Assembly (NCBI GenBank): GCA_937888725.1
Contig: CALARE010000009.1
Coordinates: 970 to 64,969 of the forward strand
Direction of reading: 5' to 3'
From: an uncultured Alphaproteobacteria bacterium
GTDB taxonomy: Bacteria > Pseudomonadota > Alphaproteobacteria > CAAHEQ01 > UBA3637
DNA length: 64,000 bases
Shown: positions 27,633 to 61,065 of the stretch, piece after piece
How positions within the stretch are numbered: position 1 is the first letter of the stretch
Layout: every line of letters begins with the position of its first letter
Made by a program: the position numbers and the translations under genes
The notes under the pieces: generated by a model
Told to the model about the DNA's origin: nothing
Seen by the model: only the letters and a program-made list of their open reading frames with translations
Database searches by the model: none

Positions 27633-27639
27633 AATCAGA

Positions 27640-34227: not shown

Positions 34228-34228
34228 G

Positions 34229-37899: not shown

Positions 37900-38020
37900 T
37901 TGGGGTATATAAAGAGATTTTCATTTTTTTTGAAAAAAATGACTATTTTCTTGCAATTTTAGGTATAAGTCGTTAAAATGTGACGGATTATAATTTTATG
38001 CTGATAAATGAGGTGTTTTC

Positions 38021-40069: not shown

Positions 40070-40079
40070 AGGTGTTGGG

Positions 40080-40802: not shown

Positions 40803-40829
40803 TCAGTTTATTGCCAAGTGAGGATATTA

Positions 40830-43800: not shown

Positions 43801-43973
43801 AGCAAAAACTTTACTTTGTGTTAGAAACCAAAGGAACGGATAATTTATTCTTGCTTAGAGAAGAAGAAAAATTGAAAATCATGTGCGGAGCCGAACACTT
43901 TAAGGCTTTAGACGGCGTTAGTTTTTCAAAAAATCCTGTCAGAGAATGGAAAGAATTTAAACAAACGGTGTAA
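40830..43973 (+). CDS. res: Type III restriction enzyme Res subunit (SF2 helicase/ATPase plus C-terminal PD-(D/E)xK nuclease)
   Basis: METGTGKTYV (motif I), VIIDEPQS (motif II), QKVGRGLR (motif VI), and a C-terminal …YNPDWAVY…LETKG nuclease motif. GAGGA RBS. Confidence 0.75.
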   Translation: MKLKFKNQEFQTDAVNAAVELFKGQEKANMTFSIADNSAQASFLQNEFGFGNKLVLDEETINNNLHAIQKAHSLPQTDIESGKALPISIEMETGTGKTYVYTKTILELNKRYGFTKFIIVVPSIAIREGVNKSFQITEEHFKNQYDSVPYRYFIYNSAKLSDVRAFATSSNIEIMIINIDAFKKAENIINQEQEKLNGETAMRYIQDTNPVVIIDEPQSVDNTPKAKEAIATLNPLCVLRYSATHREKQNLVYRLTPVDTYQMGLVKQICVISNSVINDSNKPYIALKSVSSSGGFSAKIEIDVEGKDGKVSRKTITVKPGDDLYLKSGHRQLYEGYVVAGIDCTSGYECIEFSNAECLNLGKTIGSVDESIIKRAQIYHTIKTHLEKEIRLFDKGIKVLSLFFIDEVKKYRLEDGGQGIYAKMFEECYNELINNPRYAVLKEKFNTDVTKAHDGYFSQDKKGKYKDTKGDTQADDDTYNTIMKDKEKLLSFECPLRFIFSHSALKEGWDNPNVFQVCTLIEQKSVFTCRQKVGRGLRLCVNQDGERIEDKDVNVLHVIANESFAEFADKLQKEIEEETGVKFGVLEIGMLTGLTYEEEVKVEKQISQETAETVVQELQKTGVIDDCGAVNKEVAVETIELSSVPEPVKKEIIETIRQEKPVTVAALSQTTYTETKVEKVSVSYEEAVQIMEDLKGTQVIDSKGKIKDTMKAELAAGTLNLSDRWSKAKQRAVLQALNKADNKPVIRDASKEVTVKLKKKAILSPEFMELWNKIKQKTTYRVQFDLDTLVANSIKEIKEMPEIGTARLLSQTASVNIEKSGVSHQAGRTYIQDLTRNYETLPDILRLISTKTLLKRSTVNRILQESGRMADFLKNPQEFYEKTLEIIERNRHKLAIDGIKYIKLADEEYYVQEIFDSTELIANLDKNAVAVENSVYDHVIYDSGVESKFAVALDKDPDVKMFFKIPSRFKIETPIGTYNPDWAVYLEKNGEQKLYFVLETKGTDNLFLLREEEKLKIMCGAEHFKALDGVSFSKNPVREWKEFKQTV

Positions 43974-43976
43974 ACA

Positions 43977-46541
43977 ATGGCTGAGGCTTCACGTTTTCAA
44001 TCCTCGTTTGAAGCGGTTTGGACGGCAAGATGTCTTGCCGGTCTTGTTGATGATGAAAATTTAGTGCCTGCGTTTGCCTCTGCTAACATTAAGATTTTGC
44101 CATATCAAATAGCGGCGGCCCGTTTTGCTTTGCGATCTGCAAACTTAAAAGGCTGTATTTTATGTGATGAAGGCAGTCTTGGTAAAACTTATGAGGCTTT
44201 GTTGGTTGTATCGCAACGTTGGTATGAAGGTAAAGAACGGATTTTAATCGTTTTGCCCCAAAACCTTAAAAGTCAATGGCAAGAAAAACTCACCAAAGAA
44301 TTTACTCTACCGATAACCGATTGGAGCGAATATACACAAGAGACCAAAGGCCTGTGCCTGATGACGTATGATGAAGTCATTAAAAATGAAGAAAAAGTCG
44401 GCCAAATTGTTTGGGATTTAGCTGTTTTTGATGAGGCAGATTTTCTATTCAAACCAGACAACAAATCGGTTTCTACGATTAAAAAGGCAGTTGGGAATGC
44501 GTTTAAATTGCTTTTAACCCCGACCCCTATTACATTAAGCATCATGGATATTTATGGACTTATCCATTTTATTGATGAAACTTTGTTGCCCGATGCTGAC
44601 AGCTTTTATAAAAGATATTTTAGAAAGCCCGAAAACTATCCTGAACTTTCATCATGGGTATCCAAATTTGCGTTTAGAACTTTAAAAAGACAGGTTGAAC
44701 CTTATGTTAATTTTACCAAACGTTTGCCGGTTGTTCTAAATTACACGCCACAAGATGACGAGAAAAAGCTCTATGATTTAACCGAAAAATATTTGGCTCT
44801 TGATAACAAAACTGCCTATCCGCAAATGGATAATTATCAGTTAGCATTACAATTTTATAGAAATCTTTCTTCCTCTCCGCAGGCTTTTGCCAATATGCTG
44901 TCGGCTCCGATTGAACGGGCTTCGTCTGATGAACGCATTATTTTACAGACAATGCAAAAAATGGCTTTAGATGTTTCCGTTTCGGCTAAAATGGAAGAAT
45001 TATTAAAGGCACTAAAAACAACATTTACGCATTTAAAATCACGCAAAGAAGTGCAAAAAACCATTATTTTTGTTGATAACCTGACAACTTTATCCGTTTT
45101 ATCAGAGTTATTAAAGGAACATTATTCGATTATAAAACACACAGATGATAATGCTTTGAACATTTTTAGAGAAGATAAAAATATTCAAATTCTTATCACA
45201 AACGATGCAACTGCCAAAGGCTTAGACATAGAATATTGCCCCATTGTCGTGAACTATGATTTACTTTATAACGCCGTTGAGATGGAACAACGAATTTGTC
45301 GTTGCCACCGCCAAGGACAACAATCCGATGTGTTGGTTATCAATTTGCTCAGTCAGGAAAATATGTCTGATGTGCGTATTTTGGAATTGATTAACAAACG
45401 AACTTTACAATTTCAGGGTATTTTCGGGATGTCAGACGATATTGTCGGTCATTTTGATGAAACTTTGGAGGCTGTTTTACAAAAACGACGAACCTTGCCC
45501 GATATTCAACGGGATTTTGCACAGAACTTAGAAACAAATAAAGATGCCAACTCTCAAGTTGTTTCGGATGCCGAAAGTGTTTTGTTTACGACATTTACAA
45601 AAGATGTAGCCGAAAAAGTACAGGTTTCACCGCAGTATATTCAAGAACAGGCCGAGTTCATCAATCGGGACTTATGGGAGGTTGTAAAGTTCTATTTTGA
45701 AAAACATTTTCCTGAATATGTTATTGATGAAAACAATCAAACCTTAACCCTTTCGGACGGTTATGAGCCGCCAAAGATGTTCTATTATTGGAATGGGACA
45801 AGAAATACACCTTATACGGGAAAACGTCAGTATGGTATGGCAAAAGATTTTAAACCTTCCAGTGGTCGGATTACCCTGACATCAATTTTAGCCAAGGGAA
45901 TTTTTAGTGAAATTGAATGTTCTACAGAGGGTAAAATGCACCTTGAAACAGATATACCTTCCTGTCAAATCAGCATGTATATGGTTGAATTACGCCGAAA
46001 AGGAAAGTTCCTTAAATGTTATGATGTTTTAACCGGTAAGACGAGAGATGGCAAGATTTTAACACAAGAAGAATGTGTAAAAATTCTATCACAGCCAATT
46101 AAATCTCTTGAAAATAAGGATAGAGAACGGTCTTATTGGCTTGCAAACAGTTCGTTTTCTGACAGATTGCCATTAGCCTTAGAGAATGAGTTGAAAAACA
46201 ACTATATCAAGCAACAAGAAAATTGTTTTAATGCTGATATTGATATCATTAAAATGCGTTCATCTCGTCAAAAAGCCGTATTAGAACAAACTCTTGAATC
46301 CTTACGCCAAGAAACATCAAAAATTAAAGAGAGTATCGGTAGTGCTAAAGACCGCTTAGAAGAACTTAAAATTCAAAAACAAATCAACGAAATGGAAAAA
46401 CAACTCCGCAAAAAAGAAGAAGGCTTGTTCTTTGAACAAATGCGTATCGAAGCCACCGCCGAAGAACAAATAGAACAACTCTGTGCTACTGAAAATATAG
46501 AGGTTAAATTATCAAAGGTATTTAAGGTGATGGTTTGTTGA
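43977..46541 (+). CDS. SNF2-family helicase-like protein with a C-terminal coiled-coil region (854 aa)
   Basis: LPYQIAAARF, CDEGSLGKTYEALLV, VFDEADFL, LLLTPTP, QRICRCHRQGQ. The start is 4 nt after the res stop. Confidence 0.65.
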   Translation: MAEASRFQSSFEAVWTARCLAGLVDDENLVPAFASANIKILPYQIAAARFALRSANLKGCILCDEGSLGKTYEALLVVSQRWYEGKERILIVLPQNLKSQWQEKLTKEFTLPITDWSEYTQETKGLCLMTYDEVIKNEEKVGQIVWDLAVFDEADFLFKPDNKSVSTIKKAVGNAFKLLLTPTPITLSIMDIYGLIHFIDETLLPDADSFYKRYFRKPENYPELSSWVSKFAFRTLKRQVEPYVNFTKRLPVVLNYTPQDDEKKLYDLTEKYLALDNKTAYPQMDNYQLALQFYRNLSSSPQAFANMLSAPIERASSDERIILQTMQKMALDVSVSAKMEELLKALKTTFTHLKSRKEVQKTIIFVDNLTTLSVLSELLKEHYSIIKHTDDNALNIFREDKNIQILITNDATAKGLDIEYCPIVVNYDLLYNAVEMEQRICRCHRQGQQSDVLVINLLSQENMSDVRILELINKRTLQFQGIFGMSDDIVGHFDETLEAVLQKRRTLPDIQRDFAQNLETNKDANSQVVSDAESVLFTTFTKDVAEKVQVSPQYIQEQAEFINRDLWEVVKFYFEKHFPEYVIDENNQTLTLSDGYEPPKMFYYWNGTRNTPYTGKRQYGMAKDFKPSSGRITLTSILAKGIFSEIECSTEGKMHLETDIPSCQISMYMVELRRKGKFLKCYDVLTGKTRDGKILTQEECVKILSQPIKSLENKDRERSYWLANSSFSDRLPLALENELKNNYIKQQENCFNADIDIIKMRSSRQKAVLEQTLESLRQETSKIKESIGSAKDRLEELKIQKQINEMEKQLRKKEEGLFFEQMRIEATAEEQIEQLCATENIEVKLSKVFKVMVC

Positions 46542-46566
46542 TCGTTTCTTTATAGCGAAACATGTG

Positions 46567-47499
46567 TTATGTTGAGCTAATAAAATTTTTATTTTTTTTC
46601 ATTTTTAAATAATAAGGACAATCATTGCAAGGAATATCAATTGTATTGTCCTGCATACATTTTCCAGTTAAGAGTCTTTTTGCATAACGAACTTCTTTTG
46701 ATTTTAAAGCCTTTTCTAGTCCAACATTAAAAACATTACATTTAAAATCATTTAAATAAACACAACAGCATCCCAACAAACGACCATCCCAATTAATTTG
46801 AGGGGAATTCCATAATTCCAAACAAGGTATCCAATTGAAAGAAAAAGGTGTTTCTTTAGAAAAAGATAACTTGGTTTCTTTTTCAAGCAAATCAGAATTT
46901 ATAGGTATAAAACTTTCATTCCATGTCTTTTTAAAAGAAATTGACATGTTCAATTGTTTTGCTAGTTTTTTTGCTCGTTTTATTTCATTAATATCTTGCG
47001 TTGTATCCATAACAATATACTGCCAGTTCAACAACGGATAATTGCTGTGGTAGATTTCTTTATACTTATTTATCAATTCAATATTAGCAATCACCTTATT
47101 AAATTTTCCATTGATGCGATAGGTTTTATATACTTCATCAGAAGCTCCATCTAAAGAGATGTTTAAAGAATAAAGTTGAAATTTAACTATTTTTTCTATA
47201 GCTGTTTCTTTTATTGAATTTAAATTAACTCCATTATTGGCGGTTAATTTGATTTTATTATTATAAGCAATTTCTAAAATTTTTTCAAAGTCAGGATTTA
47301 AAAAAATTTCACCACTGTTTGATATTTCTATTTCCTGTATAAAGGGATTTCGTTTGAGAAATTCTTTAAACTGTTCTGCAGTTGTATACCCTTTTCCAAC
47401 AGTTCCGTAATTTGACTTTCTCATATAGCAATCTTTACATTTTAATTGACAAGCTGTACATATATCCAATCTCACTCTTTTAGGTAATCTATGCGTCAT
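46567..47499 (-). CDS. radical SAM / SPASM-domain protein
   Basis: CxxxCxxC (CQLKCKDC) near the N-terminus and a C-terminal Cys-rich cluster. AAAGGA RBS. Confidence 0.65.
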   Translation of the reverse strand: MTHRLPKRVRLDICTACQLKCKDCYMRKSNYGTVGKGYTTAEQFKEFLKRNPFIQEIEISNSGEIFLNPDFEKILEIAYNNKIKLTANNGVNLNSIKETAIEKIVKFQLYSLNISLDGASDEVYKTYRINGKFNKVIANIELINKYKEIYHSNYPLLNWQYIVMDTTQDINEIKRAKKLAKQLNMSISFKKTWNESFIPINSDLLEKETKLSFSKETPFSFNWIPCLELWNSPQINWDGRLLGCCCVYLNDFKCNVFNVGLEKALKSKEVRYAKRLLTGKCMQDNTIDIPCNDCPYYLKMKKNKNFISST

Positions 47500-47564
47500 A
47501 ATAAATCCTTTTGTTTTTTATTAGGATAACATAAAAAATATAAGTTTGTCAAAATATAAATTTA

Positions 47565-47592
47565 TTGATTTTTTGAGAAAATATGTTATAAT
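47565..47592 (+). promoter_or_regulatory. candidate promoter TTGATT-16-TGTTATAAT (extended -10)
   Basis: Upstream of the acetyltransferase gene. Confidence 0.4.
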
Positions 47593-47616
47593 ATAGAAAG
47601 TTTTGATTTAATAGGT

Positions 47617-48171
47617 ATGACCATGAATAAAATAAAAAATAATTCTTTATATAAAGGTAATGAACCAGAATTATTAAGATTAAAAGAACAAACAGCAAAG
47701 ATATTACATGAAATTAATTTGGCCTCTCCAATAGATAGAGAAAAAAGTCATAGAACTTTATTCCCTTTGATTTTTAATCGCTTGGGAAAAAACACTTGGT
47801 TTGAACTTCCTTTTAATTGCGATTACGGAAAACATATTGAAATAGGAGAAAACTGTTATTTTAACCATCATTGTTCTATTGGTGACGGTGGAAAAGTAAT
47901 TATTGGAAATAATGTTTTAATTGGTCCATATGTCGGCATTTATACGGCACAACATCCTCTAGATTCTAAACTGCGATTAGAAGGATGGCAAAGCGTTTCA
48001 GATATTGAAATCGGAGATAATGTATGGATTGGAGCTAATTGTACCATTCTTTCTGGGGTAAAAATAGGAAACAATGCCGTGATTGGGGCTGGAAGCGTTG
48101 TAACAAAAGATATTCCTGAAAATACATTGGCCTATGGAGTACCATGTAAAATTATAAAGATTTTAACATAA
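47617..48171 (+). CDS. hexapeptide-repeat O-acetyltransferase (maltose/galactoside acetyltransferase-like)
   Basis: Left-handed beta-helix hexapeptide repeats (IGDGGKVIIGNNVLIGP…IGANCTIL…IGAGSVV). Confidence 0.75.
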   Translation: MTMNKIKNNSLYKGNEPELLRLKEQTAKILHEINLASPIDREKSHRTLFPLIFNRLGKNTWFELPFNCDYGKHIEIGENCYFNHHCSIGDGGKVIIGNNVLIGPYVGIYTAQHPLDSKLRLEGWQSVSDIEIGDNVWIGANCTILSGVKIGNNAVIGAGSVVTKDIPENTLAYGVPCKIIKILT

Positions 48172-48182
48172 AGAGAGGTATT

Positions 48183-50090
48183 TTGATACATTTATGTACA
48201 ATGATTGGCGAGAATACATTACTTCTAAATGAGTTTATAACGCACTATAAAAATTTAGGAGTAGATCGCTTTCACTTTATTGTTCACGATCCATCAGAAG
48301 AACAATATTTTACTAAAGATGTCAAAGATATTTTGGCTTTATATCATATTGGTGTAGAAGAAGTTTATAGCGGTAAATGGAATGGTGCAATTTGTACAAA
48401 ATTAATAAACTCTGTAATGAAAAAATATCCAGAAGAATGGTTTGTTATTGCAGATTTAGACGAATTTCAAATTTATCCTCAAAATCTGAAGACAATAATC
48501 TCTGAACAAGAGAAGAAAAAAAAAGATTTTGTAACAGGTCTTTTATTAGATAGATTTTCTCAAAGTGGCCATTTAACTTCAGTGAAACGTAATTTATCAA
48601 TATGGTCTCAATTTCCTATGTGCGGTTTTTTTTCTTTTCCTCTAACTCGAAGCAATCCTTATAAAATTACCCTATCTAAGGGAAAATTAACTCTTTCAGA
48701 AGGGCAACATGGGGTAATTTTTTTTAATGAGAAATATCCTCAAATAAATGAAATTATTGCAGAAGTTCATCATTTCAAATGGAATGATATCCTGTTAGGA
48801 AAAATAAAAAATAGATTAACCTATGAACGAAGGGGAGATTGGATTAATTCTTATCAAGGATATAAAGGCGAACTGGAATGTATATTAAAATATTTTGGCA
48901 CACATTATAAAACAGACTTAACAAATCCTCTTTTTATGTTTACTCGTGAAAAAGAAGATCACTCCTATGCAAATTTTAATAGTATTAAACGGTTGGCTGC
49001 AGATTGGGACGTTTTACATGCATATCCAACGCTTGATCAGAATATTTTTGAAGCAACGATAATCATAAGTTCTTATAATCAGGGGGATATAATACAAAAA
49101 AGTGTAAAAGAGTTAATACAACAAGCAACTCAAAGTGATAAAAAAATTCAAATTGTTCTCGCAGATGATGGATCTACATTAAGCGAGCAGGAAAAATGTA
49201 CGGCATTAACACAATATAGTACAGACAACATAAAAGTCCAATTTGTGACACAAGAGGATAAAGGGTTCAGATTAGCTGCATCAAGAAATAATGCAATAAA
49301 ATTAGCTCAGAGTAATGTGCTCATTTTTATAGATGGTGACTGTTTCCCTATGCCAGGTTTTTTGAATGAACATATAAATTTTCACAAAAAAAATTCTTAT
49401 GCACTTTGTGTCGGTTCTAGAGGATATGCTCCATTAGAAGCTCTGAAGCAAAAGAGTTTACAATCTGACAAAAGTTATGAGTTAATGGAAGCGATGGAAA
49501 GCTACACAGTTAATGAAAAAGCTAACTCACAATACCCTTGGAGAGCTGTTTTGGGTAGAAATTTCAGTGTAAAATCATATTTTCCTCTTCCGCTTTTTGA
49601 TGAAAATATAAAAGGTTGGGGATTTGAAGATACCGCTTACGCTCTGGATCTTTTCTTTATGGGATATCAAAAAGTTGTATTTTCTGGCAATGCCAGAGTG
49701 GTTCAATTTGATGACTTTTCAAGTACAAATGATCCCTTTAAATCACTAAATAATGATAAGATTGCTGCTACTCAAAAAAATGCCTTATATTTGATGAGTA
49801 AGTACAAGAGATACGACGATATATTTATGGAACTTGGTGCCTATCTTTCATTTTTTGCAGAACCTTTTGATTATAATAATGGTGTATTCATACTAAATGA
49901 AGAGAAACGTCAAAGAGTTCATAAGCTTTTCTCTGATGGAGAAAGAAAATCTAAACAAGAATATGTAGATTTATTTAATTCTTGCAGAAAGAAACTTATA
50001 GATTTTTACAAGAGACGATCTTTAAAAACGCAGAAAATTTGTACCAACCATCAGCCTTATCATCAAACTTTTCAAAAGGTTAGAGAGTAA
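48183..50090 (+). CDS. two-domain glycosyltransferase (unknown N-terminal domain plus a GT2 domain)
   Basis: TTG start preceded by AGAGAGG. GT2 signature IISSYNQ…LADDGST…IDGD. An in-frame A9 tract lies at 48516-48524. Confidence 0.65.
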   Translation: MIHLCTMIGENTLLLNEFITHYKNLGVDRFHFIVHDPSEEQYFTKDVKDILALYHIGVEEVYSGKWNGAICTKLINSVMKKYPEEWFVIADLDEFQIYPQNLKTIISEQEKKKKDFVTGLLLDRFSQSGHLTSVKRNLSIWSQFPMCGFFSFPLTRSNPYKITLSKGKLTLSEGQHGVIFFNEKYPQINEIIAEVHHFKWNDILLGKIKNRLTYERRGDWINSYQGYKGELECILKYFGTHYKTDLTNPLFMFTREKEDHSYANFNSIKRLAADWDVLHAYPTLDQNIFEATIIISSYNQGDIIQKSVKELIQQATQSDKKIQIVLADDGSTLSEQEKCTALTQYSTDNIKVQFVTQEDKGFRLAASRNNAIKLAQSNVLIFIDGDCFPMPGFLNEHINFHKKNSYALCVGSRGYAPLEALKQKSLQSDKSYELMEAMESYTVNEKANSQYPWRAVLGRNFSVKSYFPLPLFDENIKGWGFEDTAYALDLFFMGYQKVVFSGNARVVQFDDFSSTNDPFKSLNNDKIAATQKNALYLMSKYKRYDDIFMELGAYLSFFAEPFDYNNGVFILNEEKRQRVHKLFSDGERKSKQEYVDLFNSCRKKLIDFYKRRSLKTQKICTNHQPYHQTFQKVRE

Positions 50091-51069
50091 TTGTATCTAC
50101 ATATCCTAACTCAATAAAAGTCCTTTTTAAAAAGTCTGGATCATTAATTTTAAAGAGAAGTTCATGTTGCCCCTTATGTTTTAAACCATAATTTTCACCA
50201 TCTTTTGCTCCGGCAATAGTAAATTTTCCAAAAGGCCTATCTTTTCCCTTTGTTTTCCATATTTCGATTTTTGCTTGTATTTTTTCATAATCCATTTTTA
50301 ATTCTGGATCTTGATTTAAGAGCATTACAACCTCTCTAAAGCCAGCCTTCCAAGCATTAAATGGAGAGGTATTAAAATTAGTAATCGAGGCTATTTCTTT
50401 TATACCTCTTGTTTTTAAAATACCACCGCTAGCAATGGGATCTATTTTATCATTTTGGATTCTTCTAAAATTTTCAGTTGGACAAGATTTTATTCCGCCA
50501 TATCCATAAACTAAATCATTTACAGGATTGCGTGTCATATAAAAATGCATCTCGTTTGGTAAAGGAGGTGTTACAGAGTATAAATCAAATTCATCAAGAA
50601 CTAAATTATCCCCATCAATTAAAACATAATAACTACTCTCGACCATCTCAGCAACATTTCGGAAAGCCCTAGACAAACCTTTTACTCTATGCAATCGTTT
50701 TAAGTTGGGATATTTTTTTAATAGATTTTCAAAATTATCTTCTGCATTGTTTTCATTATATGTTAAATATACAATATCTGGTTGTTTTTTATTTCCAAAT
50801 GGAATGTATTTATCAATAATATTTTTCTTTTGAATTACAGGATAATACTTCATTAACTCATTTAATGTCTCTGGAATAAAAAACTCATCTGCTTGAGCAC
50901 TTATTGCGATAAAGGAATCTGTATCCGTAATTAAAGCCGCCATCTTATAAGCATCTTCTTTAGATAACCCATGAACCCTTTTGATATCGGGAAAAAAATG
51001 TTGAAGAGATTGAAAAAAAAGTTCAATTTTCGAATTAAAACAACCTGACGATATAAAAACTATCTCCAT
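50080..51069 (-). CDS. hypothetical protein, possibly a nucleotide-sugar transferase (DxD-like IDGDN)
   Basis: ORF in cluster context. Weak motif only. Confidence 0.4.
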   Translation of the reverse strand: MEIVFISSGCFNSKIELFFQSLQHFFPDIKRVHGLSKEDAYKMAALITDTDSFIAISAQADEFFIPETLNELMKYYPVIQKKNIIDKYIPFGNKKQPDIVYLTYNENNAEDNFENLLKKYPNLKRLHRVKGLSRAFRNVAEMVESSYYVLIDGDNLVLDEFDLYSVTPPLPNEMHFYMTRNPVNDLVYGYGGIKSCPTENFRRIQNDKIDPIASGGILKTRGIKEIASITNFNTSPFNAWKAGFREVVMLLNQDPELKMDYEKIQAKIEIWKTKGKDRPFGKFTIAGAKDGENYGLKHKGQHELLFKINDPDFLKRTFIELGYVDTITL

Positions 51070-51071
51070 TT

Positions 51072-52001
51072 TTAGTCCTTTTGATTTTGATACATTTTTT
51101 GTATATCTAAGATGTTATTTATTGATTTTCTTTGCGAAGCAACACAATGATAACAGGGTCTACATAAAAAATCTTTTTTAGAATCTTCTAAGCCAGCAAC
51201 CTGTAAACGTTTTAGATTATATACTCGTGAATGTAGTATATCATCTAATGAACTTGTATTTATATTTCCTACAATGTGGTTTTGTAACCAATCATGACAA
51301 CAAAAAGATACATTTCCATTATGAAAAATGTAGGTTCGATCTAAGTGTCTATTAAAATCACAACCTTCAGGTTGTATTTGAATATTTCTTTGCTGTTTTG
51401 ATTGTATGAGACCCGATCGATTAACAAAACTATATTTTTCTATAGAAATCCCGTTATCTGTCCAAAAGGAATTATCTTGTGCTTTTCCAATATTAAGACC
51501 AGCATCTTCTAATCCTGTGAGTTTGACAACAGACAATGATGTAGTAGATCTTCGTTCTTTTAATACTTGATTTAGATATAAAATATTTTTACAAACCTGT
51601 TCATAATTTATAGATTTTCCCATAATTTTATACGTTTGATCTCTATCATTTCCAAACACACTAAATAGTATCTTATCGATATTTAAGTCACTTAAGCGAT
51701 CAGCAATAGATGGAGTTAATAGCATTCCATTTGTAGATATTTCAATTTTTGCGGTTGGAATGAGAGTTTTAATTTGGTGCAATCTATCAATCATCTGATT
51801 GTCTATAAATGGTTCATTGTTTAAATAAGGAATAATCCATTTAGGTTTGAGAACTGATAATTCTTCTAATAATTTTCGCCATGTAGTATCTGACATATAT
51901 TCAAGCTTTGTCCTACCTTTCATATCGTGCCAAGGACAGACAACGCAAGAAGAATTGCAATAAGACACTGTTTGAATTTCAATAGCTTCTAGTTTGTACA
52001 T
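51072..52001 (-). CDS. radical SAM / SPASM-domain protein
   Basis: CNSSCVVC (CxxxCxxC) and a C-terminal CRPCYHC cluster. Confidence 0.65.
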   Translation of the reverse strand: MYKLEAIEIQTVSYCNSSCVVCPWHDMKGRTKLEYMSDTTWRKLLEELSVLKPKWIIPYLNNEPFIDNQMIDRLHQIKTLIPTAKIEISTNGMLLTPSIADRLSDLNIDKILFSVFGNDRDQTYKIMGKSINYEQVCKNILYLNQVLKERRSTTSLSVVKLTGLEDAGLNIGKAQDNSFWTDNGISIEKYSFVNRSGLIQSKQQRNIQIQPEGCDFNRHLDRTYIFHNGNVSFCCHDWLQNHIVGNINTSSLDDILHSRVYNLKRLQVAGLEDSKKDFLCRPCYHCVASQRKSINNILDIQKMYQNQKD

Positions 52002-53158
52002 GTTTTTTCTCTTTTAAATTCTGAAATAAATTTTTTTGCAATTTTGAAAGATGTTAATTTTTTTGTACATTCATATGATTTTTTAGACATAGCCAACCAA
52101 AAATCTAGATCAGAATTTAATTTTTGAATTATTTCTACCAATTTTTTAGGTGATGAATATAAAAGCTCATTAGGTATAAACTCTTTAAACCAATCAAAAT
52201 TAGGAGCTACGCAAGGAATTCCAAGAGCCATAGAATCTATGCAGGACATAGACCAAGGAGTACCTTTTCGGTATGGAGCTAAGCAACACAAAGCTCCGTT
52301 AAAAGCCTCTTTATAAATATCTCGGTTATTACCATCTACCCGAATCGTCACATTTTTATATTTCGAAAGTGCTTGTCTGTATTTCTCAACAGATGTGTCT
52401 AATCTTTTTCTTTTGGGATCTCGATTCCCTAAAATATCAAATATTTCAAATTCAAAATCGCCTATTTGATTTAAATTTGAAATTGTTTCCAACAAAAAAG
52501 ATGTTCCATAATGTTCATATAAACGATGATTATAAATAATTCGATTAGAGTGTCCATTTGGAGAATTATAAATGAACAGAGGATCTTTAGGTGGCGGATT
52601 AATAATAAACTTATGTGTATTAAAACTCTTATTATACTTTTCTAAAAGAAATTTTATGTTTTGTAAAGAGGTTTTGCTATGAGTGAATATAGTGTCAGCT
52701 GACAATATTCCAGAGAGAAAACTTAATTGTATAGTCTCATTTATGTTTCCTGCATTCAAAGAAGTGTCTGTATTTATTTTATTTTTTTGAAAAAAATAGG
52801 GAATATAATGAGCATATCCAATAATTTTAATAGTTGATAATTCTAAGTGTTCGATTAAAGCTTTGTAATTCGGGATAAGTTCTATTTGATTAATTAGTAG
52901 AACATCTGGATTTTCTTGCTTTATTATTTGCTCTATCTTATCCCAATTAAAATTAAATCTAACTGCATACTTACTATTTCCGAAATCAAAAGGAATATGT
53001 TTGATATTTTCATTTGATAAAGGTCTGGGAGATGCAAATAAAAAATCTATATCCTCATTAAGAAAGTCTTTAACTAATGTATTATAAAAAATATATGCAG
53101 AGTCTGTGGATAAATTATCTTTATTACTTACATTTAAAAAACATAAAACTCGAACCAT
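51989..53158 (-). CDS. glycosyltransferase family 1 (GT-B)
   Basis: C-terminal E-x7-E-like motif region and a Gly-rich nucleotide-sugar loop. Confidence 0.55.
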   Translation of the reverse strand: MVRVLCFLNVSNKDNLSTDSAYIFYNTLVKDFLNEDIDFLFASPRPLSNENIKHIPFDFGNSKYAVRFNFNWDKIEQIIKQENPDVLLINQIELIPNYKALIEHLELSTIKIIGYAHYIPYFFQKNKINTDTSLNAGNINETIQLSFLSGILSADTIFTHSKTSLQNIKFLLEKYNKSFNTHKFIINPPPKDPLFIYNSPNGHSNRIIYNHRLYEHYGTSFLLETISNLNQIGDFEFEIFDILGNRDPKRKRLDTSVEKYRQALSKYKNVTIRVDGNNRDIYKEAFNGALCCLAPYRKGTPWSMSCIDSMALGIPCVAPNFDWFKEFIPNELLYSSPKKLVEIIQKLNSDLDFWLAMSKKSYECTKKLTSFKIAKKFISEFKREKTCTN

Positions 53159-53161
53159 ATT

Positions 53162-53878
53162 TCACCTCTTTCTCATAATTGCTAAACCTGGATATATAGG
53201 TAATCTAAACTTTTCATACATTTCATCTGAGATATCGGTAAATGCATCAAAACCACCTGCTATATCTAAAGTACCTGTTGAAGGAAAATCCTTTTTTAAT
53301 TGTGGATCCACATCATGAGCAATTATAATAGCATCCTTTTTTAGTTTTGGATAAAAATTTTTAAAATCGTGCATAATTCCAGCATAACTGTGATCACCAT
53401 CTACATACAATAAATCAATTTCTTTAAAGGAATTTGCGTTAAGCAAATATTCTGCAGATGTTTGTTTAAAGTGCGTGATAATATCTTCCAAGTGATATTT
53501 TTTCCATAAATTATAAACTTCTTCTTCAGAATCCCATTTCCCAATCCCATACCAATGGTTTTTATCTTCGTTTGCAACGGAGTAAGAAGGATCTATAAAA
53601 TGTAACTGTGGAGTTACAGAGTGCTTTAGTATAACTTCTTCACAATCAACTTTTTTTATTTCTCCTCCTTCGTTATCTCTTAATCCCAAACCAAACATTA
53701 TTGGAGAAAAACCTGCTTTAGATCCAATAACAACAACATTCATGGGCCGAATAGACCGAACCAATGAGTAAAAAATAAAACCAAATCCTAAATTATTTGT
53801 TTTCAAATCAGTTACTTGAAAACTCGGCATTGTGTTACTTAAAATATCCGTTATTAAATCTTTTGTTAATGAAAACAC
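53162..53878 (-). CDS. class I SAM-dependent O-methyltransferase (TylF/CmcI-like)
   Basis: VVIGSKAGFS SAM-binding loop and the LYVDGDHSY motif characteristic of the TylF/macrocin O-methyltransferase family. Confidence 0.6.
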   Translation of the reverse strand: MFSLTKDLITDILSNTMPSFQVTDLKTNNLGFGFIFYSLVRSIRPMNVVVIGSKAGFSPIMFGLGLRDNEGGEIKKVDCEEVILKHSVTPQLHFIDPSYSVANEDKNHWYGIGKWDSEEEVYNLWKKYHLEDIITHFKQTSAEYLLNANSFKEIDLLYVDGDHSYAGIMHDFKNFYPKLKKDAIIIAHDVDPQLKKDFPSTGTLDIAGGFDAFTDISDEMYEKFRLPIYPGLAIMRKR

Positions 53879-53883
53879 TTTAA

Positions 53884-55074
53884 TTACTCCTTCATTTTTT
53901 TTAAAAAACCATTAATTTGTTGTAGTCTTTTTTTGCTAAAGTTACTTCCAAAATAATGTTTCCAGTTTTGCACAACACTAACCTGGTATGGTATTTCTAA
54001 TTGGATGTTAAAAGGCTTCTCGTCCGAAGAAGTTAGTAATGCTTGAAATAATCCCGCTAACCAAAGTCCTCGAGTCAACATTATTTCAGGATCGCCTTTT
54101 AAATTTTTTCCATAGACTCTGTCAAAATTAATGGGGAATGTCCCATTTGTAATAAAAAGAGATTTTTTCTTTGATATATTAAAAGTAAAATCATCAAAAG
54201 GTTTTTCAGGATTAAATGGGACTTTTATTCCTGTAAGAAAATTACTAAACTCTGTATCTTTAGAGGATGCGGAAACTAAAATTACTTTTTCCTTTAGATC
54301 CGCTATCATTTCTTTTGTTAAAGATGAAACCCCTGTAGTTCCAATCAAACAGTCTGATTCTTTCAATAGCATCTTTAAACTTCTAAAAAAAACAGGAGGA
54401 ACTTTTTCTTGTTGTAAATCATAACAGATAATATTCAATCCTTTTTTAGAAAAAAAATCTAACAAAGAGTTTCCTATAGCTCCTCCTCCCAATACGCCAT
54501 ATGTAAACTCTTTTTTTATTAAATGTCTTTTATCTAGAGCATTAAATATAGAGGCAGCAATAAAATTTGATTCTAACTCCCTTTTTGCTTTTGAGATTGC
54601 CACCTCAATAACCGGATAACGGTATTCAGAGTATGTCCCTTGCGTTGTTAATTCAACGCCAATCACATCCATTTCTTGAGGTAATAATATTTCTGAAACT
54701 GCTTGGGTAAGAGCCGCTCCGCTATCCATTACAATTATTTTTGGGTTAGAACTTTTTTGCGTTGTTTTAAAAAGTTGTTGAATCATAGTTTTGGCAGCTA
54801 AATAAGAAACTCTTTCATAGTCACCCCAACAAGAGGGGAGATCCATATGAAATACATTAAAACTATTCTTTTGTAGATAACTAAAAATTTCCGGAACAGT
54901 AGAATAGGATTTTCCTAATATAAAAATATTCTCCTTTTTAAAACCCAATTCTATCAAGGTTTCAAAAAAAGAAAGTGAGGAATACAAAATATGTGCATGA
55001 AAACAGATGAAGATGTCATCAAAGTTCGACCGTTTTTTATAAATATCATTAGCAATATCTTTTAAAAAAAACAT
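53884..55074 (-). CDS. NAD(P)-binding Rossmann-fold protein of unknown function (adenosylhomocysteinase-like dinucleotide-binding region)
   Basis: GVLGGGAIGNS…ICYDL GxGxxG motif. The N-terminal domain is unrecognised. Confidence 0.4.
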   Translation of the reverse strand: MFFLKDIANDIYKKRSNFDDIFICFHAHILYSSLSFFETLIELGFKKENIFILGKSYSTVPEIFSYLQKNSFNVFHMDLPSCWGDYERVSYLAAKTMIQQLFKTTQKSSNPKIIVMDSGAALTQAVSEILLPQEMDVIGVELTTQGTYSEYRYPVIEVAISKAKRELESNFIAASIFNALDKRHLIKKEFTYGVLGGGAIGNSLLDFFSKKGLNIICYDLQQEKVPPVFFRSLKMLLKESDCLIGTTGVSSLTKEMIADLKEKVILVSASSKDTEFSNFLTGIKVPFNPEKPFDDFTFNISKKKSLFITNGTFPINFDRVYGKNLKGDPEIMLTRGLWLAGLFQALLTSSDEKPFNIQLEIPYQVSVVQNWKHYFGSNFSKKRLQQINGFLKKMKE

Positions 55075-55212
55075 TTTATCAATCTCATTTTATTAACATC
55101 TTGATACATTTTAGCATAAAATTATAAATTTTCAAGTTATTTTTTCTTTACACAAGTTTTTTTTTATGCTAAAATCAAATTGAAATCGTTTAAAATCTTC
55201 ACGAGAATTGTA

Positions 55213-56679
55213 ATGCACAAACCAATACGAATTGAAAAATTATCATTAGAACTACCGCATAAAACATGTTTTTATGATTTTTCTACACAAATTCATTCGG
55301 GAGATAGAATTGGGATTATAGGGAAAAATGGATCAGGAAAATCTTCTTTAATTAAAATTCTTTTAGATCAAATAGAACCATCGAAGGGAAATGTTTATAA
55401 TTTATCCCATTTATCTATTGGATATGTTCCACAAACAATACTAAATCATGACGATCTTAGTGGTGGAGAACGCTTTAATCGGGCACTTTCTGATGCTTTA
55501 GAAATGGATCCAGATATTTTAATACTTGATGAGCCAACAAATCATTTGGATCAGCAAACCAGATATTCTTTAATGAGAATGTTAAATAATTACAGAGGAA
55601 CATTAGTAATAGCAACACACGATACAAATCTTATCAATCAATGTGTTAATACAATATGGCATATAGATCAAGGGAAAATAAATGTTTTTTCTGGAAATTA
55701 TGATGATTACAAAAGAGAATGTTTGATTTGTAGGAATAGTCAAGAAAGAACGTTAGAATTATTAAAAAAAGAAAAGAAGAAAATAAAAGAAGCAAAAATA
55801 AAAGAATTAAAGAAAAGTTCTAAACAGGGAAAATCAAAACCAAAGGATAATGAAAAGCTCTCCTATAATGGAAAAGCAAGTAAGGGAAAAGCCACATCTG
55901 ATGCGAGAGTTAGTGCGTTAAAAAGTGAATTAGAAAATATTCAAAAGGATATGAGCGCTTCTAGATTACCAGAAATTTTGATACCAAAATTCAAGTTAAA
56001 TAGCGCTTCTGTTTCTTTATCTAAAACAGTCTTATCTATTTCTCAAGGTTCTTGTGGATATGGAAACAATCCGATTGTTTCAGGAATTTCACTCTCTATA
56101 TCTGGTACAGATAAAATATCTCTTTCTGGAAATAATGCTTCCGGTAAAACAACTTTTTTGAAAGCTATTTTAAGTAATAAATCTATTTTACGGCAAGGAT
56201 TTTGGAATGTTCCTAATCCACAAGATATCGGCTATGTAGATCAGCATTATGAAAACTTATCTCCGACTAAAACTGTTGAGGAAATTATTTATGAACGTTC
56301 TCGTTTGCCACATTCAGAAATTCGAAAACATTTAAATGATTTTTTATTTAGAAAAAATGAAGAAGTTTTTGAAAAGGTTCAAAATTTATCTGGTGGGGAA
56401 AAAGCTCGCTTATCTTTAGCACAAATAGCAATTGCCCCACCTAAATTACTTATTTTAGATGAAATAACAAATAATGTAGATATTGAAACAAAAGAATATA
56501 TTTCAGCAGTTCTTTCTAATTATCCTGGAGCTTTTATAATTATTTCTCACGAACCTGATTTCTTAGCTTCACTTCCTTTAACTGGCAAATATGTTATAGA
56601 GAAAGGCAAATTCCTTCTTGAGCGACAACAATCATCTCAATTATGTCACTCATTTCCAAATGGTAGGGAGCGAAGTTAA
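55213..56679 (+). CDS. ABC-F family ATPase (two ABC cassettes, no TM domain)
   Basis: Walker A GKNGSGKSS and GNNASGKTT, two LSGGE signature motifs, and a Lys/Glu-rich linker. The start is set at the ATG at 55213, downstream of a TGcTAAAAT -10-like element. Confidence 0.7.
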   Translation: MHKPIRIEKLSLELPHKTCFYDFSTQIHSGDRIGIIGKNGSGKSSLIKILLDQIEPSKGNVYNLSHLSIGYVPQTILNHDDLSGGERFNRALSDALEMDPDILILDEPTNHLDQQTRYSLMRMLNNYRGTLVIATHDTNLINQCVNTIWHIDQGKINVFSGNYDDYKRECLICRNSQERTLELLKKEKKKIKEAKIKELKKSSKQGKSKPKDNEKLSYNGKASKGKATSDARVSALKSELENIQKDMSASRLPEILIPKFKLNSASVSLSKTVLSISQGSCGYGNNPIVSGISLSISGTDKISLSGNNASGKTTFLKAILSNKSILRQGFWNVPNPQDIGYVDQHYENLSPTKTVEEIIYERSRLPHSEIRKHLNDFLFRKNEEVFEKVQNLSGGEKARLSLAQIAIAPPKLLILDEITNNVDIETKEYISAVLSNYPGAFIIISHEPDFLASLPLTGKYVIEKGKFLLERQQSSQLCHSFPNGRERS

Positions 56680-58500: not shown

Positions 58501-59790
58501 TCATCTATTTTCAAATAAATGAATATCACGATCAGCCACATCAACCCATGGGATTTTAAATTGTCCCATATACCCCTTTAAAACCTCTAAAATACTATCA
58601 CGCCCCGTAGCACCCATTAACATTGGCTCTTTATCATAAATAAATTCTTCCAACGTAATACCATAATTAAATTTCATCAAATAATTAAAAAATTTATTAT
58701 GAACCAAATCATTATCTTTTAAGCCAGGCACCTGTTTTTGATAATAGGGCATATGTTCAACAACTGTCTTAATAAAATGAGTGCGTCCGTTGTGCTCTAG
58801 ATAACTTTTTCGTGGGGTATATTTATGTTGATTAACGAGCACTTTATGAATCGTTTCAGCTAATGATTCAGGGGTAAATTCTTTCGCATACTCTCCCGCC
58901 TTGGGATAAATTGCGGGACTTGTCCCACGGATAAATTTATTATAATCTTTAAAAATAACAATCGGCGTGTTCGCACTCATTGCTTCATGAATAAATCTGT
59001 TTTTCCCTTCGCAAATTGAGGCAAGAACAGCACATTTTGACATGCTAAAATATTTTGTTAATTCCGCATAGGGTATTGTTGGCACCAACTGTATATAGGA
59101 AAATATCTGACCGCCCAAAATTTCATCAACCTTTTGAAATACCCCCTTTTCATAATCACTTAAAGACGAAATATCAATCCGACCATCTTTTTGAAGTTTA
59201 TGTGAATGAGCCCCGATCCCAAGCACAAAGTGTAATCGATGCTGATACTTTTTTTCATAAGCCAGAAGCATTTTTGCCAACATAGGCAAATTTTTAACAG
59301 GGTAAGCCGTGGAAAGGCAAAAAACGTCAATAACCTTTGGTAATGGGACAGAAAAAGGGGCCATAAAGCGTTCATTTGTCCAGTCCGCATCTTGCAAAGG
59401 GAGATAGATTAAATCCCGACGATGTGGATACTTTTTTTTATAATAATTTTCTCTTTTTTTATTCTTAAACAAGGTAAAAAGGCAATCAACCCCTTCAGAC
59501 CAAGCATATGAAAAAGTCATTGCATTGCCACAAATATGAAATAGCCTTTTAATATTTGGCACTTTTTTTATCAAATATTCACTCACTTGCGAATAGGCAA
59601 AGCCTTTGATAAAAATTGGACCAAATTTAACAGGTGGAATACAGACGGTTAAATTGGCTTTTTTTTCAAAAGGTTCCCCTTGTGTATAAATTTCTTCAAA
59701 GCTAAACGCATCTAAGGTATCCCAAATTTTTTCAATCGGTTGATTTGGATTTGGGTTATCCAAATACTGAACTGGCCATACCCCTTTCAT
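58501..59790 (-). CDS. GT-B fold glycosyltransferase-like protein
   Basis: EGKNRFIHEAMSANTPIV (E-x7-E-like). Confidence 0.45.
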   Translation of the reverse strand: MKGVWPVQYLDNPNPNQPIEKIWDTLDAFSFEEIYTQGEPFEKKANLTVCIPPVKFGPIFIKGFAYSQVSEYLIKKVPNIKRLFHICGNAMTFSYAWSEGVDCLFTLFKNKKRENYYKKKYPHRRDLIYLPLQDADWTNERFMAPFSVPLPKVIDVFCLSTAYPVKNLPMLAKMLLAYEKKYQHRLHFVLGIGAHSHKLQKDGRIDISSLSDYEKGVFQKVDEILGGQIFSYIQLVPTIPYAELTKYFSMSKCAVLASICEGKNRFIHEAMSANTPIVIFKDYNKFIRGTSPAIYPKAGEYAKEFTPESLAETIHKVLVNQHKYTPRKSYLEHNGRTHFIKTVVEHMPYYQKQVPGLKDNDLVHNKFFNYLMKFNYGITLEEFIYDKEPMLMGATGRDSILEVLKGYMGQFKIPWVDVADRDIHLFENR

Positions 59791-59936
59791 AGTTTGTCTC
59801 CTTAAATTTTGTGTCCTAAATGAGCTTTAGCATGATAGCTCAAAAAAGTCAATGTGCTATTTTTCCACTTGCAAAACATTTTTAAATATGCCATCATTTA
59901 ACCTGTTGATTTTTATTTATTAAACAGGATGCATTT

Positions 59937-61064: not shown

Positions 61065-61065
61065 C

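Follow-up and report, generated by a model that had tools for sequence, protein, structure and literature searches.

The window, by which we refer to the whole analysed stretch of 64,000 nucleotides, originates from an uncultured gut alphaproteobacterium. Between positions 46567 and 55074 it contains eight open reading frames, all of which were confirmed at their coordinates together with the domain classes assigned to them in an initial sequence-only reading (Table 1). Two of their products are radical SAM proteins, termed rSAM1 and rSAM2, which are encoded among glycosyltransferases (GTs).

Table 1. Genes and other features of the cluster, in window coordinates.
Feature	Position	Strand	Description	Domain evidence
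rSAM1	46567..47499	-	310 aa, radical SAM; monocistronic, accessory tailoring gene	Pfam Radical_SAM 37.9 bits
AT-rich divergent intergenic region	47500..47616	.	117 bp; separates rSAM1 from the acetyltransferase-GT operon	
Sugar O-acetyltransferase	47617..48171	+	hexapeptide-repeat, LacA/Maa-like; accessory	Pfam Hexapep, Mac
Double GT	48183..50090	+	two GT-A glycosyltransferase domains in one 635-aa protein; core	PF13704, PF00535
p329	50080..51069	-	GT-A-like with DxD motif; core; last gene of minus-strand operon	
rSAM2	51072..52001	-	309 aa, predicted BtrN-family twitch enzyme	Pfam Radical_SAM 48.7 bits, SPASM 38.7 bits
GT-B	51989..53158	-	GT1/GT4-like glycosyltransferase; core	PF13692 31.8 bits, PF00534
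Methyltransferase	53162..53878	-	class I SAM methyltransferase; core	Methyltransf_24 (PF13578), E=2e-17
p396	53884..55074	-	NAD-binding, D-2-hydroxyacid dehydrogenase-like; accessory; first gene of minus-strand operon	
ABC-F ATPase	55180..56679	+	conserved neighbour, right border of cluster	

Composition and conservation of the cluster

For the O-acetyltransferase, the NCBIfam models of galactoside (E=3e-42) and maltose O-acetyltransferases (E=2e-39) both score below their curated cutoffs. In the double GT, Pfam locates the two domains at residues 13-100 (PF13704) and 292-424 (PF00535). The methyltransferase matches Methyltransf_24 and reaches only 18.6 bits with the TylF model, a value under the cutoff; judged from its sequence it is distantly TylF-like. 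The product of p396, a gene not described in that reading, matches PF02826 at residues 190-258 (27.3 bits), and its best PDB sequence matches, all of them weak, are D-lactate and 4-phosphoerythronate dehydrogenases. The protein at the right border matches the NCBIfam model of ribosomal-protection-like ABC-F proteins (E=1e-106) and contains no hydrophobic segment, and its sequence marks it as an ABC-F translation factor rather than a transporter or glycan exporter. The embedding of the radical SAM genes in a GT cluster has been borne out, as they are integral parts of its operons, with rSAM2 overlapping the GT-B gene by 13 nucleotides and separated by 2 nucleotides from p329, to both of which it is probably translationally coupled. 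Promoter-like hexamers are found on both strands of the divergent intergenic region at a frequency no higher than in shuffled sequence.

The cluster does combine several GTs (four domains or proteins) with tailoring enzymes, namely a methyltransferase and an acetyltransferase, whereas its initial description as a typical surface-glycan cluster is overstated. None of the proteins encoded within 46567-56679 contains a transmembrane segment (a 19-residue hydropathy window never rises above 1.6), and neither a flippase, polymerase, exporter, priming transferase or lipid-carrier component nor genes for NDP-sugar synthesis were found in the cluster. A complete surface-polysaccharide locus, either Wzx/Wzy- or ABC-transporter-dependent, was rejected since genes for priming, export and NDP-sugar synthesis are absent.

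Two relatives (L004 and L044) show synteny over the whole gene set at 64-70% identity, its core is retained in three more distant loci (L043, L039 and L041), and the association of these genes is thus not due to chance. The constant core consists of the methyltransferase, the GT-B protein, p329 and the two GT-A domains, and it is surrounded by variable tailoring genes that include both radical SAM genes: rSAM2 is missing from L043 and rSAM1 from L039 and L041. In the latter two loci the halves of the double GT are encoded by separate ORFs (each half E=1e-77 to 1e-88). Orthologues of the GT-B protein are present in L004, L039, L041 and L043, and those of the methyltransferase in L004, L041 and L043. 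In L043, an AAA_33 kinase takes the position of the O-acetyltransferase and a HAD hydrolase that of p396, which in L041 gives way to an SDR NDP-sugar epimerase/dehydratase (GDP_Man_Dehyd, E=3e-52). The ABC-F neighbour is shared with L004, L043 and L044.

Cysteine motifs of the radical SAM proteins

According to the definitions that separate SPASM from twitch domains (PMC6231123), a full SPASM domain carries the seven-cysteine motif CX9-15GX4C-gap-CX2CX5CX3C-gap-C. In both radical SAM families of the cluster, the N-terminal CX3CX2C motif is invariant, and only four to five C-terminal cysteines are conserved per family, which in either case form the motif CX12-14GX4C(C)…CX2C. The respective arrangements are C17x3C21x2C24 and C226x12Gx4C244C245…C291x2C294 in rSAM1, whose conservation was read from an alignment of 32 sequences, and C15x3C19x2C22 and C214x14Gx4C234…C280x2C283 in rSAM2; additional cysteines (C246, C254 and C281 in rSAM1, C286 in rSAM2) vary within the families. 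Since the second half of the seven-cysteine motif, CX2CX5CX3C…C, is absent from both family alignments, we assign both proteins to the twitch type, each with a predicted SAM-cleaving [4Fe-4S] cluster and one predicted auxiliary cluster, and reject the full SPASM class with its two auxiliary clusters. The two families are mutually related, as they align end to end in hhalign (98.9% probability, E=4e-17) with the twitch cysteines of rSAM1 (C226, C244/245, C291, C294) matched to those of rSAM2 (C214, C234, C280, C283).

Of the SPASM-like C-termini initially ascribed to both proteins, the cysteine-rich regions are indeed found in each, but classification by HMMs returned Radical_SAM for both and SPASM for rSAM2 only, with no match of this Pfam model to the rSAM1 sequence of the window, and the family motifs are those of twitch proteins. 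A SPASM match should therefore not be read as evidence for a peptide maturase until the full seven-cysteine motif has been checked. The characterised twitch enzymes BtrN and MoaA act on small molecules, and the premise that SPASM enzymes normally modify peptides is thus inapplicable to the twitch-type proteins described here. The suggested unannotated peptide substrate has likewise found no support: a listing of ORFs of at least 20 residues contained no free-standing small ORF in the intergenic regions of 117, 105 and 25 bp, and both proteins lack an RRE-like N-terminal domain because their CX3CX2C motif already begins at residue 15-17. In light of the missing adjacent precursor gene and of the missing RRE or other N-terminal peptide-binding domain, the class of RiPP radical SAM maturases was rejected. 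With the SPASM maturases anSME, AlbA, PqqE and SuiB, both proteins have in common the radical SAM core and, of the C-terminal cysteine motif, the first half, whereas neither a second auxiliary-cluster motif nor an RRE domain or peptide gene is present here, and the matches in sequence do not extend beyond the core.

Relatives of rSAM2, rSAM1 and p329

As a single sequence, rSAM2 has BtrN as its sole PDB sequence match (E=1e-9), and the profile of its family aligns with BtrN in two stretches covering the core and the twitch domain (E=3e-35), with the next PDB matches at E=1e-8 or weaker; the region of the catalytic base of BtrN fell outside the alignment. At the level of sequence, rSAM2 is thus a genuine homologue of BtrN. 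This butirosin 2-deoxy-scyllo-inosamine dehydrogenase (PDB 4M7T), whose substrate is carbohydrate-like, resembles rSAM2 in its size class of about 250-310 residues, in the lack of an N-terminal extension and in the combination of CX3CX2C with a twitch domain containing CX12-14GX4C…CX2C, although the identity is only about 25-30%. The contexts differ, as BtrN is part of an aminoglycoside pathway, whereas rSAM2 is found next to GTs in a cluster that contains neither an aminotransferase nor a 2-DOI synthase. An orthologous role of rSAM2 as DOIA dehydrogenase was rejected, since its neighbours are GTs, a methyltransferase and an acetyltransferase and aminocyclitol genes are absent.

Natural fusions of the GT1-rSAM2 type were found in four proteins (P0418, P0430, P0425 and P0455), with GT1 preceding the radical SAM domain as in the overlapping gene pair of the window, and the C-terminal radical SAM domain of P0455 shares 32% identity with rSAM2. 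P0007, which at 43% identity is the closest outgroup of rSAM2, and the majority of the wider family are located next to nucleoside-kinase-like and NUDIX genes rather than GTs, and the ancestral substrate of the family may thus have been a nucleotide.

rSAM1 is, by its sequence, a member of a large uncharacterised family, and no close characterised relative was found by sequence or fold. Its AF2 model (pLDDT 90.7) displays a beta-hairpin and a helix around C244/245, and the top Foldseek matches are SuiB in first place, BlsE, EpeE, DesII and viperin at a TM of about 0.6. The match to BtrN (4M7T) has E=1e-4, and the tie of rSAM1 to this enzyme is indirect, through Foldseek and the hhalign alignment with the rSAM2 family. 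BlsE, a cytosylglucuronate decarboxylase (PDB 7VOB), belongs with DesII and AprD4 to the radical SAM enzymes whose targets are sugar moieties; ranking third among the fold matches of rSAM1 (E=3e-9, TM 0.62) at an identity of about 12%, it shows a resemblance at the fold level only. These three enzymes stem from antibiotic pathways, and the cluster of the window contains no uronic-acid-forming enzyme. A fusion to a GT2 is also found in the rSAM1 family (P0161), whose genes adjoin GT4 and GT8 genes in other loci, and in one alphaproteobacterial MAG three rSAM1 paralogues are interleaved with three GT8 genes.

p329 matches no Pfam or NCBIfam family above threshold, with only a sub-threshold match to GT2, and none of its 70 homologues is annotated. 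Its AF2 model (pLDDT 95.6) and the invariant motif IDGDN, a DxD (D152/D154), indicate a divergent GT-A fold. The PDB fold matches are weak and all of the GT-A type (SunS, GtrB, ppGalNAcT), and in BFVD the protein matches GT2/DXD glycosyltransferases as well as two caudoviral proteins (E=1e-16). The domain occurs in at least 592 viral loci, in proteins that are 33-41% identical to p329 of the window, and p329 thereby represents a new family of GT-A-like proteins, whose viral members number in the hundreds and are devoid of annotation. A twitch-like radical SAM gene follows on the same strand 3' of the p329-domain gene in 35 of 44 metagenome loci and 26 of 48 viral loci, the corresponding upstream figures for radical SAM genes being 7/32 and 8/49. 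The pairing of GT and twitch radical SAM genes recurs widely in aquatic phages as an uncharacterised arrangement, and UDP-glucose dehydrogenases are found beside the phage cassettes of p329 and rSAM genes.

Proposed function and its alternatives

The homology to BtrN, the GT fusions of both radical SAM families and their repeated GT2, GT4 and GT8 neighbourhoods make a sugar the best reading of the substrate, in line with one of the initial suggestions. We consider it fairly probable that the cluster constitutes a cytoplasmic glycosylation module, in which the twitch radical SAM enzymes tailor sugars in coupling to the GTs. In such a scenario, each enzyme would reductively cleave SAM, the resulting 5'-deoxyadenosyl radical would abstract a hydrogen from a carbon of the sugar, perhaps in an NDP-sugar donor or in a residue that the partner GT has already transferred, and the second electron would pass to the auxiliary cluster. 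For rSAM2, a secondary alcohol would most likely be oxidised to a ketone, whose subsequent reduction by the NAD-binding p396, or by the SDR in L041, could result in a net epimerisation. Candidate reactions of rSAM1 include oxidation, epimerisation or a BlsE-like decarboxylation. The acceptor is not encoded within the cluster, and our leading guess is the LPS core or O-chain or another cytoplasmically assembled glycan of the Gram-negative bacterium.

Alternatively, the module could modify a nucleotide, nucleoside or nucleic acid, as in the hypermodification of DNA with sugars or the synthesis of a modified nucleotide, and act as a mobile, phage-related conflict module, which we regard as unlikely. 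Consistent with such a role, the neighbours in the wider rSAM2 family include dNK/thymidylate/cytidylate-kinase-like (14/112) and NUDIX genes (8/112), a second radical SAM gene is present in 23 of its 31 loci, P0007 adjoins phage tail genes, the p329 domain is predominantly viral and all cluster proteins are soluble. The cluster of the window also abuts an island whose genes match DruE3/DruH3 of Druantia III, type III R-M and DrmD in PADLOC, and recombinase, Dam and conjugation genes are located near the L043 and L039 loci. However, PADLOC models match none of the eight cluster proteins, which led to the rejection of a known anti-phage defence system, and the defence island is missing from the syntenic L004 and L044 loci. 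Moreover, the GT-context rSAM2 proteins form a clade of their own, apart from those in kinase contexts, and the partners of the radical SAM proteins (GT2, GT4, GT8, a LacA-type acetyltransferase, an NDP-sugar SDR and UDP-glucose dehydrogenase) belong to families typically involved in the assembly of glycans.

It appears improbable that the module would glycosylate a protein or peptide encoded elsewhere, with the radical SAM enzymes acting on the glycoprotein or peptide itself. All enzymes are cytoplasmic and soluble, as expected in this case, some twitch enzymes (SkfB, EpeE) use peptide substrates, and p329 has its best, albeit weak, fold matches in the PDB with the peptide S-glycosyltransferases SunS and ThuS and polypeptide GalNAc-transferases. 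Yet these matches have E-values above 1e-3 and a TM of about 0.3, with other GT-A enzymes scoring equally, no precursor-sized ORF was found in or beside the cluster, both radical SAM proteins lack an RRE or other N-terminal extension, and the family profile favours BtrN over EpeE/YydG by about 27 orders of magnitude. A function of rSAM1 and rSAM2 as anSME- or cofactor-type maturases of a target encoded elsewhere, which would render their position in the cluster incidental and was named in the initial reading as its refutation, is disfavoured and highly improbable: although the top NCBIfam model of both is a tungsten-cofactor oxidoreductase maturase, its match covers the N-terminal core only at 61-63 bits versus a cutoff of 380, no curated NCBIfam cutoff is approached, the match to anSME is equally confined to the core (E=2e-5), the second auxiliary-cluster motif is missing, and the linkage to GTs is conserved, with rSAM2 overlapping its operon neighbours and GT fusions in both families.

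Returning to sugar tailoring, the combination of a twitch radical SAM protein with a GT, sometimes in a fused form, could represent a widespread class of glycan editors common to Alphaproteobacteria and aquatic myophages, introducing radical oxidation, epimerisation or decarboxylation at or after transfer, an extension that we put forward tentatively. If true, it would provide residues beyond the ordinary NDP-sugar pathways and diversify the glycans that serve as phage receptors. In this subfamily, sequence similarity networks are known to be poor predictors of function (PMC6231123). If sugar tailoring holds, BtrN-type radical chemistry would extend beyond antibiotic pathways to a common, modular editing of sugars in envelope glycans and in the modification of host surfaces by phages. 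As a compact, tractable example, the window contains two homologous though unrelated-looking twitch enzymes, one of which overlaps with its partner GT, and the natural gene fusions point to this kind of partner.

Comparable arrangements have been described in other organisms. A functionally untested block on the plasmid pBHWA1 of Brachyspira hyodysenteriae, which has been associated with colonisation and virulence (PMC4267127), contains seven radical SAM/SPASM genes among rfbABCD, glycosyltransferases and rhamnan-synthesis genes. Its radical SAM proteins are distant homologues of rSAM1 (30% identity) and rSAM2 (25% identity), but in this plasmid-borne spirochaete locus the glycosyltransferases are different, p329 is absent, and NDP-sugar genes are found there only. 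In pelagimyophages, whose hosts are Alphaproteobacteria, GT genes are reported to lie beside variable radical SAM cassettes in a hypervariable host-recognition region (PMC7029224). These cassettes resemble the viral loci with p329 followed by a twitch gene in their gene types, a likeness that does not equate the published cassettes with p329 loci, and, unlike the phage DNA, that of the window is cellular, with housekeeping genes on its flanks.

Classification of rSAM1 and rSAM2

The two radical SAM proteins of the cluster, rSAM1 and rSAM2, are on the basis of their family alignments predicted to be twitch-type enzymes with one auxiliary cluster each, because only the first half of the SPASM motif, as defined in PMC6231123, is conserved. 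The label 'SPASM-like', which the sequence-only reading had attached to both, thus needs correcting. The only conserved cysteines are C15/C19/C22 followed by C214, C234, C280 and C283 in the rSAM2 family and C17/C21/C24 followed by C226, C244/C245, C291 and C294 in the rSAM1 family, with both families sharing the pattern CX12-14GX4C…CX2C. The CX2CX5CX3C…C half, which belongs to a second auxiliary cluster, is absent from both alignments, and the remaining cysteines, which underlie the Cys-rich appearance of the proteins in the window, are not conserved. A recent duplication is ruled out by direct comparison (BLASTP, E=0.23), and in a profile-profile comparison the two families are distant homologues from end to end (98.9% probability, E=4e-17) whose twitch cysteines are in register.

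Among proteins of known structure, the rSAM2 family profile matches BtrN, the twitch-type 2-deoxy-scyllo-inosamine dehydrogenase of butirosin biosynthesis, with E=3e-35 over the core as well as the twitch domain; further structures come in at E=1e-8 or weaker. For rSAM1 no PDB entry is matched by sequence and its family profile finds weak matches confined to the core. Its predicted model, which is confident (pLDDT 90.7), resembles SuiB, BlsE, EpeE, DesII, viperin and BtrN only generically, which would place it among SPASM/twitch enzymes in terms too generic to suggest a specific function. That the two proteins might be anSME-like maturases, the case named as counting against a role in the glycan, was pursued by HMM and profile searches and can be dismissed together with any other curated maturase identity, as neither protein approaches a curated NCBIfam cutoff and the anSME match of the rSAM2 family profile is restricted to the radical SAM core.

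Organization and conservation of the cluster

The open reading frames described from sequence alone are all present with exact coordinates. The proposed TylF-like O-methyltransferase is a methyltransferase, but its match to TylF stays below threshold.

Genes of the cluster and features of the adjoining defence island, with positions in the window
Feature	Position	Strand	Assignment
tRNA-Pro	27556-27632		
DruE3	28240-34227		Druantia type III
DruH3	34229-37756		Druantia type III
Mod	38021-40069		type III R-M
240-aa ORF	40080-40802		no assignment; between Mod and Res
Res	40818-43973		type III R-M
DrmD-like	43977-46541		SNF2 helicase
rSAM1	46567-47499	-	radical SAM protein (Pfam, NCBIfam scans)
Acetyltransferase	47617-48171	+	hexapeptide, LacA/Maa-like (Pfam, NCBIfam scans)
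Two-domain GT	48183-50090	+	635 aa, two GT-A domains (Pfam, NCBIfam scans)
p329	50080-51069	-	'putative transferase' of the sequence-only reading; no family threshold reached
rSAM2	51072-52001	-	radical SAM protein; the only one of the pair with a direct Pfam SPASM match
GT1	51989-53158	-	GT1/GT4-like transferase (Pfam, NCBIfam scans)
MT	53162-53878	-	Methyltransf_24 methyltransferase; TylF sub-threshold
p396	53884-55074	-	NAD-binding, 2-hydroxyacid dehydrogenase-like; not described in the sequence-only reading

The minus-strand genes are tightly packed in the order p396-MT-GT1-rSAM2-p329, with an overlap of 13 nt between GT1 and rSAM2 and a gap of 2 nt between rSAM2 and p329. The acetyltransferase and the two-domain glycosyltransferase run convergent to this group, and rSAM1 is set apart by a divergent intergenic region of 117 bp. 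The G+C content is ~0.29-0.31 over the cluster vs 0.34-0.38 in both flanks, and a scan for promoters and terminators returned matches no more frequently than expected from shuffled sequence. No cluster protein contains a transmembrane segment, domain scans of the cluster found no flippase, polymerase, exporter, priming transferase or NDP-sugar pathway, and the adjoining ABC protein belongs to the ABC-F translation factors (NCBIfam). The description as a typical surface-glycan cluster therefore has to be revised: the module is one of cytoplasmic glycosylation and not a self-sufficient surface-polysaccharide locus. For p329, the AlphaFold2 model (pLDDT 95.6), whose fold matches GT-A enzymes, and an invariant IDGDN motif support its assignment as a putative divergent GT-A glycosyltransferase, with weak matches to this class alone in the PDB.

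The entire gene set from ABC-F through rSAM1 is kept in two related loci, L004 and L044 (64-70% identity). Two more distant ones, L039 and L041, retain MT, GT1, p329, rSAM2 and the pair of GT-A domains, each here encoded by its own gene, are devoid of rSAM1, the acetyltransferase and p396, and carry instead an NDP-sugar SDR (GDP_Man_Dehyd, E=3e-52), a tyrosine-phosphatase-like protein, a GT8, a Methyltransf_21 protein and a further radical SAM gene. L043, likewise a more distant locus, keeps MT, GT1, p329, the two-domain glycosyltransferase and rSAM1 but lacks rSAM2, and p396 and the acetyltransferase are replaced in it by a HAD hydrolase and an AAA_33 kinase. Since either radical SAM gene can be missing while the core stays constant, both are accessory tailoring genes around a core of four transferases. 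The copy in L043 adjoins a serine recombinase and a Dam methylase (1-476, 12178-12696) and that in L039 DUF4099/DUF3945 conjugation-type genes (1-253), which suggests a module that moves with flexible or mobile parts of the genome.

Directly to the left of rSAM1, a defence island (27556-46541) extends to tRNA-Pro. It is absent from the syntenic L004 and L044, where a His_Phos_1 gene follows rSAM1. The cluster itself was rejected as a defence system, since PADLOC returned no defence-model match for any of its eight proteins.

Substrate class and proposed chemistry

Both radical SAM families are linked to glycosyltransferases. Among the more than 415 members of the rSAM1 family at 40-50% identity, one is a fusion with a GT2 domain and has GT2 genes as its neighbours, another is located between GT4/GT8 and a methyltransferase, and some contain a weak PglD_N-like N-terminal domain. 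In an Alphaproteobacteria MAG (L045:8001-12966), three paralogues of this family (330, 334 and 296 aa) alternate with three GT8 genes, with an additional GT8 gene (606 aa) nearby. The rSAM2 family comprises 2,712 50%-identity clusters in an exhaustive profile search (E≤1e-30), and a sample of ten long members contained four GT1-rSAM fusions and five proteins with B12-binding radical SAM domains as the fusion partner. The order of the domains in the GT1 fusions is that of the overlapping GT1 and rSAM2 genes in the window, and rSAM2 shares 32% identity with the radical SAM half of one of them (P0455); the window GT1 shows no BLAST similarity to the GT1 domain of this fusion, and the evidence from fusions thus applies at the level of the glycosyltransferase class only. 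Fusions of BtrN-like to B12-binding radical SAM domains (P0398, P0406, P0408, P0402, P0393) can be considerably longer (P0475, 2331 aa; P0502, 2431 aa), and some long ones contain 3-6 radical SAM stretches.

Glycosyltransferase linkage, the fusions in both families and the homology to BtrN favour a sugar over a peptide as substrate class, which had been one of two options considered from sequence alone. A nucleotide-type substrate for rSAM2, possibly a nucleotide-linked sugar, is a less probable alternative suggested by the neighbourhood of the wider family and the placement of the window protein in a tree. Homologues at 25-43% identity from Firmicutes, candidate phyla radiation bacteria and archaea are located outside glycosyltransferase clusters, beside a second radical SAM gene (~490-545 aa) in 23 of 31 loci and next to dNK/thymidylate/cytidylate-kinase-like genes and NUDIX hydrolases. 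The resulting conserved kinase/NUDIX operon with a twitch radical SAM gene (L008-L038, for example L009:9375-13184 and L012:8328-11502) has the appearance of an as yet undescribed pathway for modifying nucleosides or nucleotides. An abundant variant (L001:5729-13772), which includes Inositol_P (inositol-monophosphatase-like), HAD and three kinase genes, adjoins phage tail genes, and in a neighbour-joining tree calculated without bootstrap the proteins from a glycosyltransferase context (window, P0003-P0006) form one clade that is sister to this variant. Literature searches found no paper characterising the rSAM1 family, the rSAM2 family or this operon, and BtrN-type twitch enzymes coupled to glycosyltransferases are known from annotations but not from any characterised case.

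The other option, an unannotated peptide substrate as in RiPPs, is not supported: among all ORFs of at least 20 aa within 46400-55300 none is small and free-standing, the only two that overlap the ~250 bp of intergenic DNA (47549-47698 and 55132-55218) each run into neighbouring genes, which rules out a precursor peptide encoded in the cluster, and as the radical SAM motif begins at residue 15-17 in both proteins, there is no space for an N-terminal peptide-recognition domain.

Returning to sugars as substrates, the observed architecture, homology, linkage and fusions make it reasonably probable that rSAM1 and rSAM2 act in radical sugar tailoring coupled to glycosyltransferases, while the assignment of a specific dehydrogenase reaction is tentative and rather doubtful. 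Each enzyme would cleave SAM, hydrogen would then be abstracted from a sugar carbon and the second electron would be passed to the auxiliary cluster, in line with the proposal made for BtrN (PMC9012708). In the case of rSAM2 this would most likely oxidise an alcohol to a ketone, whose reduction by p396, or by the SDR of L041, could result in net epimerisation. In a Gram-negative organism with soluble transferases, our leading guess for the acceptor would be the LPS core or O-chain.

Phage association of p329 and surroundings of the cluster

The C-terminal domain of p329 (~220 residues) is found at 33-41% identity in at least 588 aquatic metagenome loci and at least 592 viral-contig loci of IMG/VR. 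A radical SAM-like ORF is located within 5 kb downstream on the same strand in 35 of 44 metagenome and 26 of 48 viral loci, and within 5 kb upstream on either strand in 7 of 32 and 8 of 49, respectively. Of 120 neighbours scanned, 44 belong to Radical_SAM and four are UDP-glucose dehydrogenases, with most others outside any Pfam family. In these loci (L050-L209, for example L100:9638-14611, L082:9041-14764 and L156:9008-10660), a twitch-like radical SAM gene, or a pair of them, usually lies downstream on the same strand, a UDP-glucose dehydrogenase is occasional and most intervening genes have no Pfam family. The rSAM2 family gave only three weak matches in viral contigs and is therefore, unlike p329, not itself phage-typical.

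For pelagimyophages, the hypervariable region for host recognition is described as containing GT8 genes together with radical SAM cassettes that vary (PMC7029224), a possible counterpart of the p329 loci. A second published precedent is the Brachyspira hyodysenteriae plasmid pBHWA1 (L046, NC_012226.1, 7270-20028), where seven radical SAM/SPASM genes are interspersed with rfbABCD, glycosyltransferase genes and genes for rhamnan synthesis; a portion of the block is reported to correlate with virulence (PMC4267127). The breadth of the phage-borne association between p329 and radical SAM genes adds to the interest of the cluster.

Elsewhere in the window, a TyrRS, an alternative valine-tRNA ligase of archaeal/rickettsial type (7773-10376) and a 636-aa ankyrin-repeat protein (11276-13186) with sub-threshold matches to models of Legionella Dot/Icm Ank effectors were identified, the ligase and the ankyrin-repeat protein providing a hint of a possibly host-associated lifestyle. 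Further glycan-type genes are located outside the cluster at 21952-23346 and 58501-62271, and include a 464-aa GT2 (TuaG/EpsE-like), a 429-aa GT1, a type I phosphodiesterase/alkaline-phosphatase-like protein and an MFS transporter.
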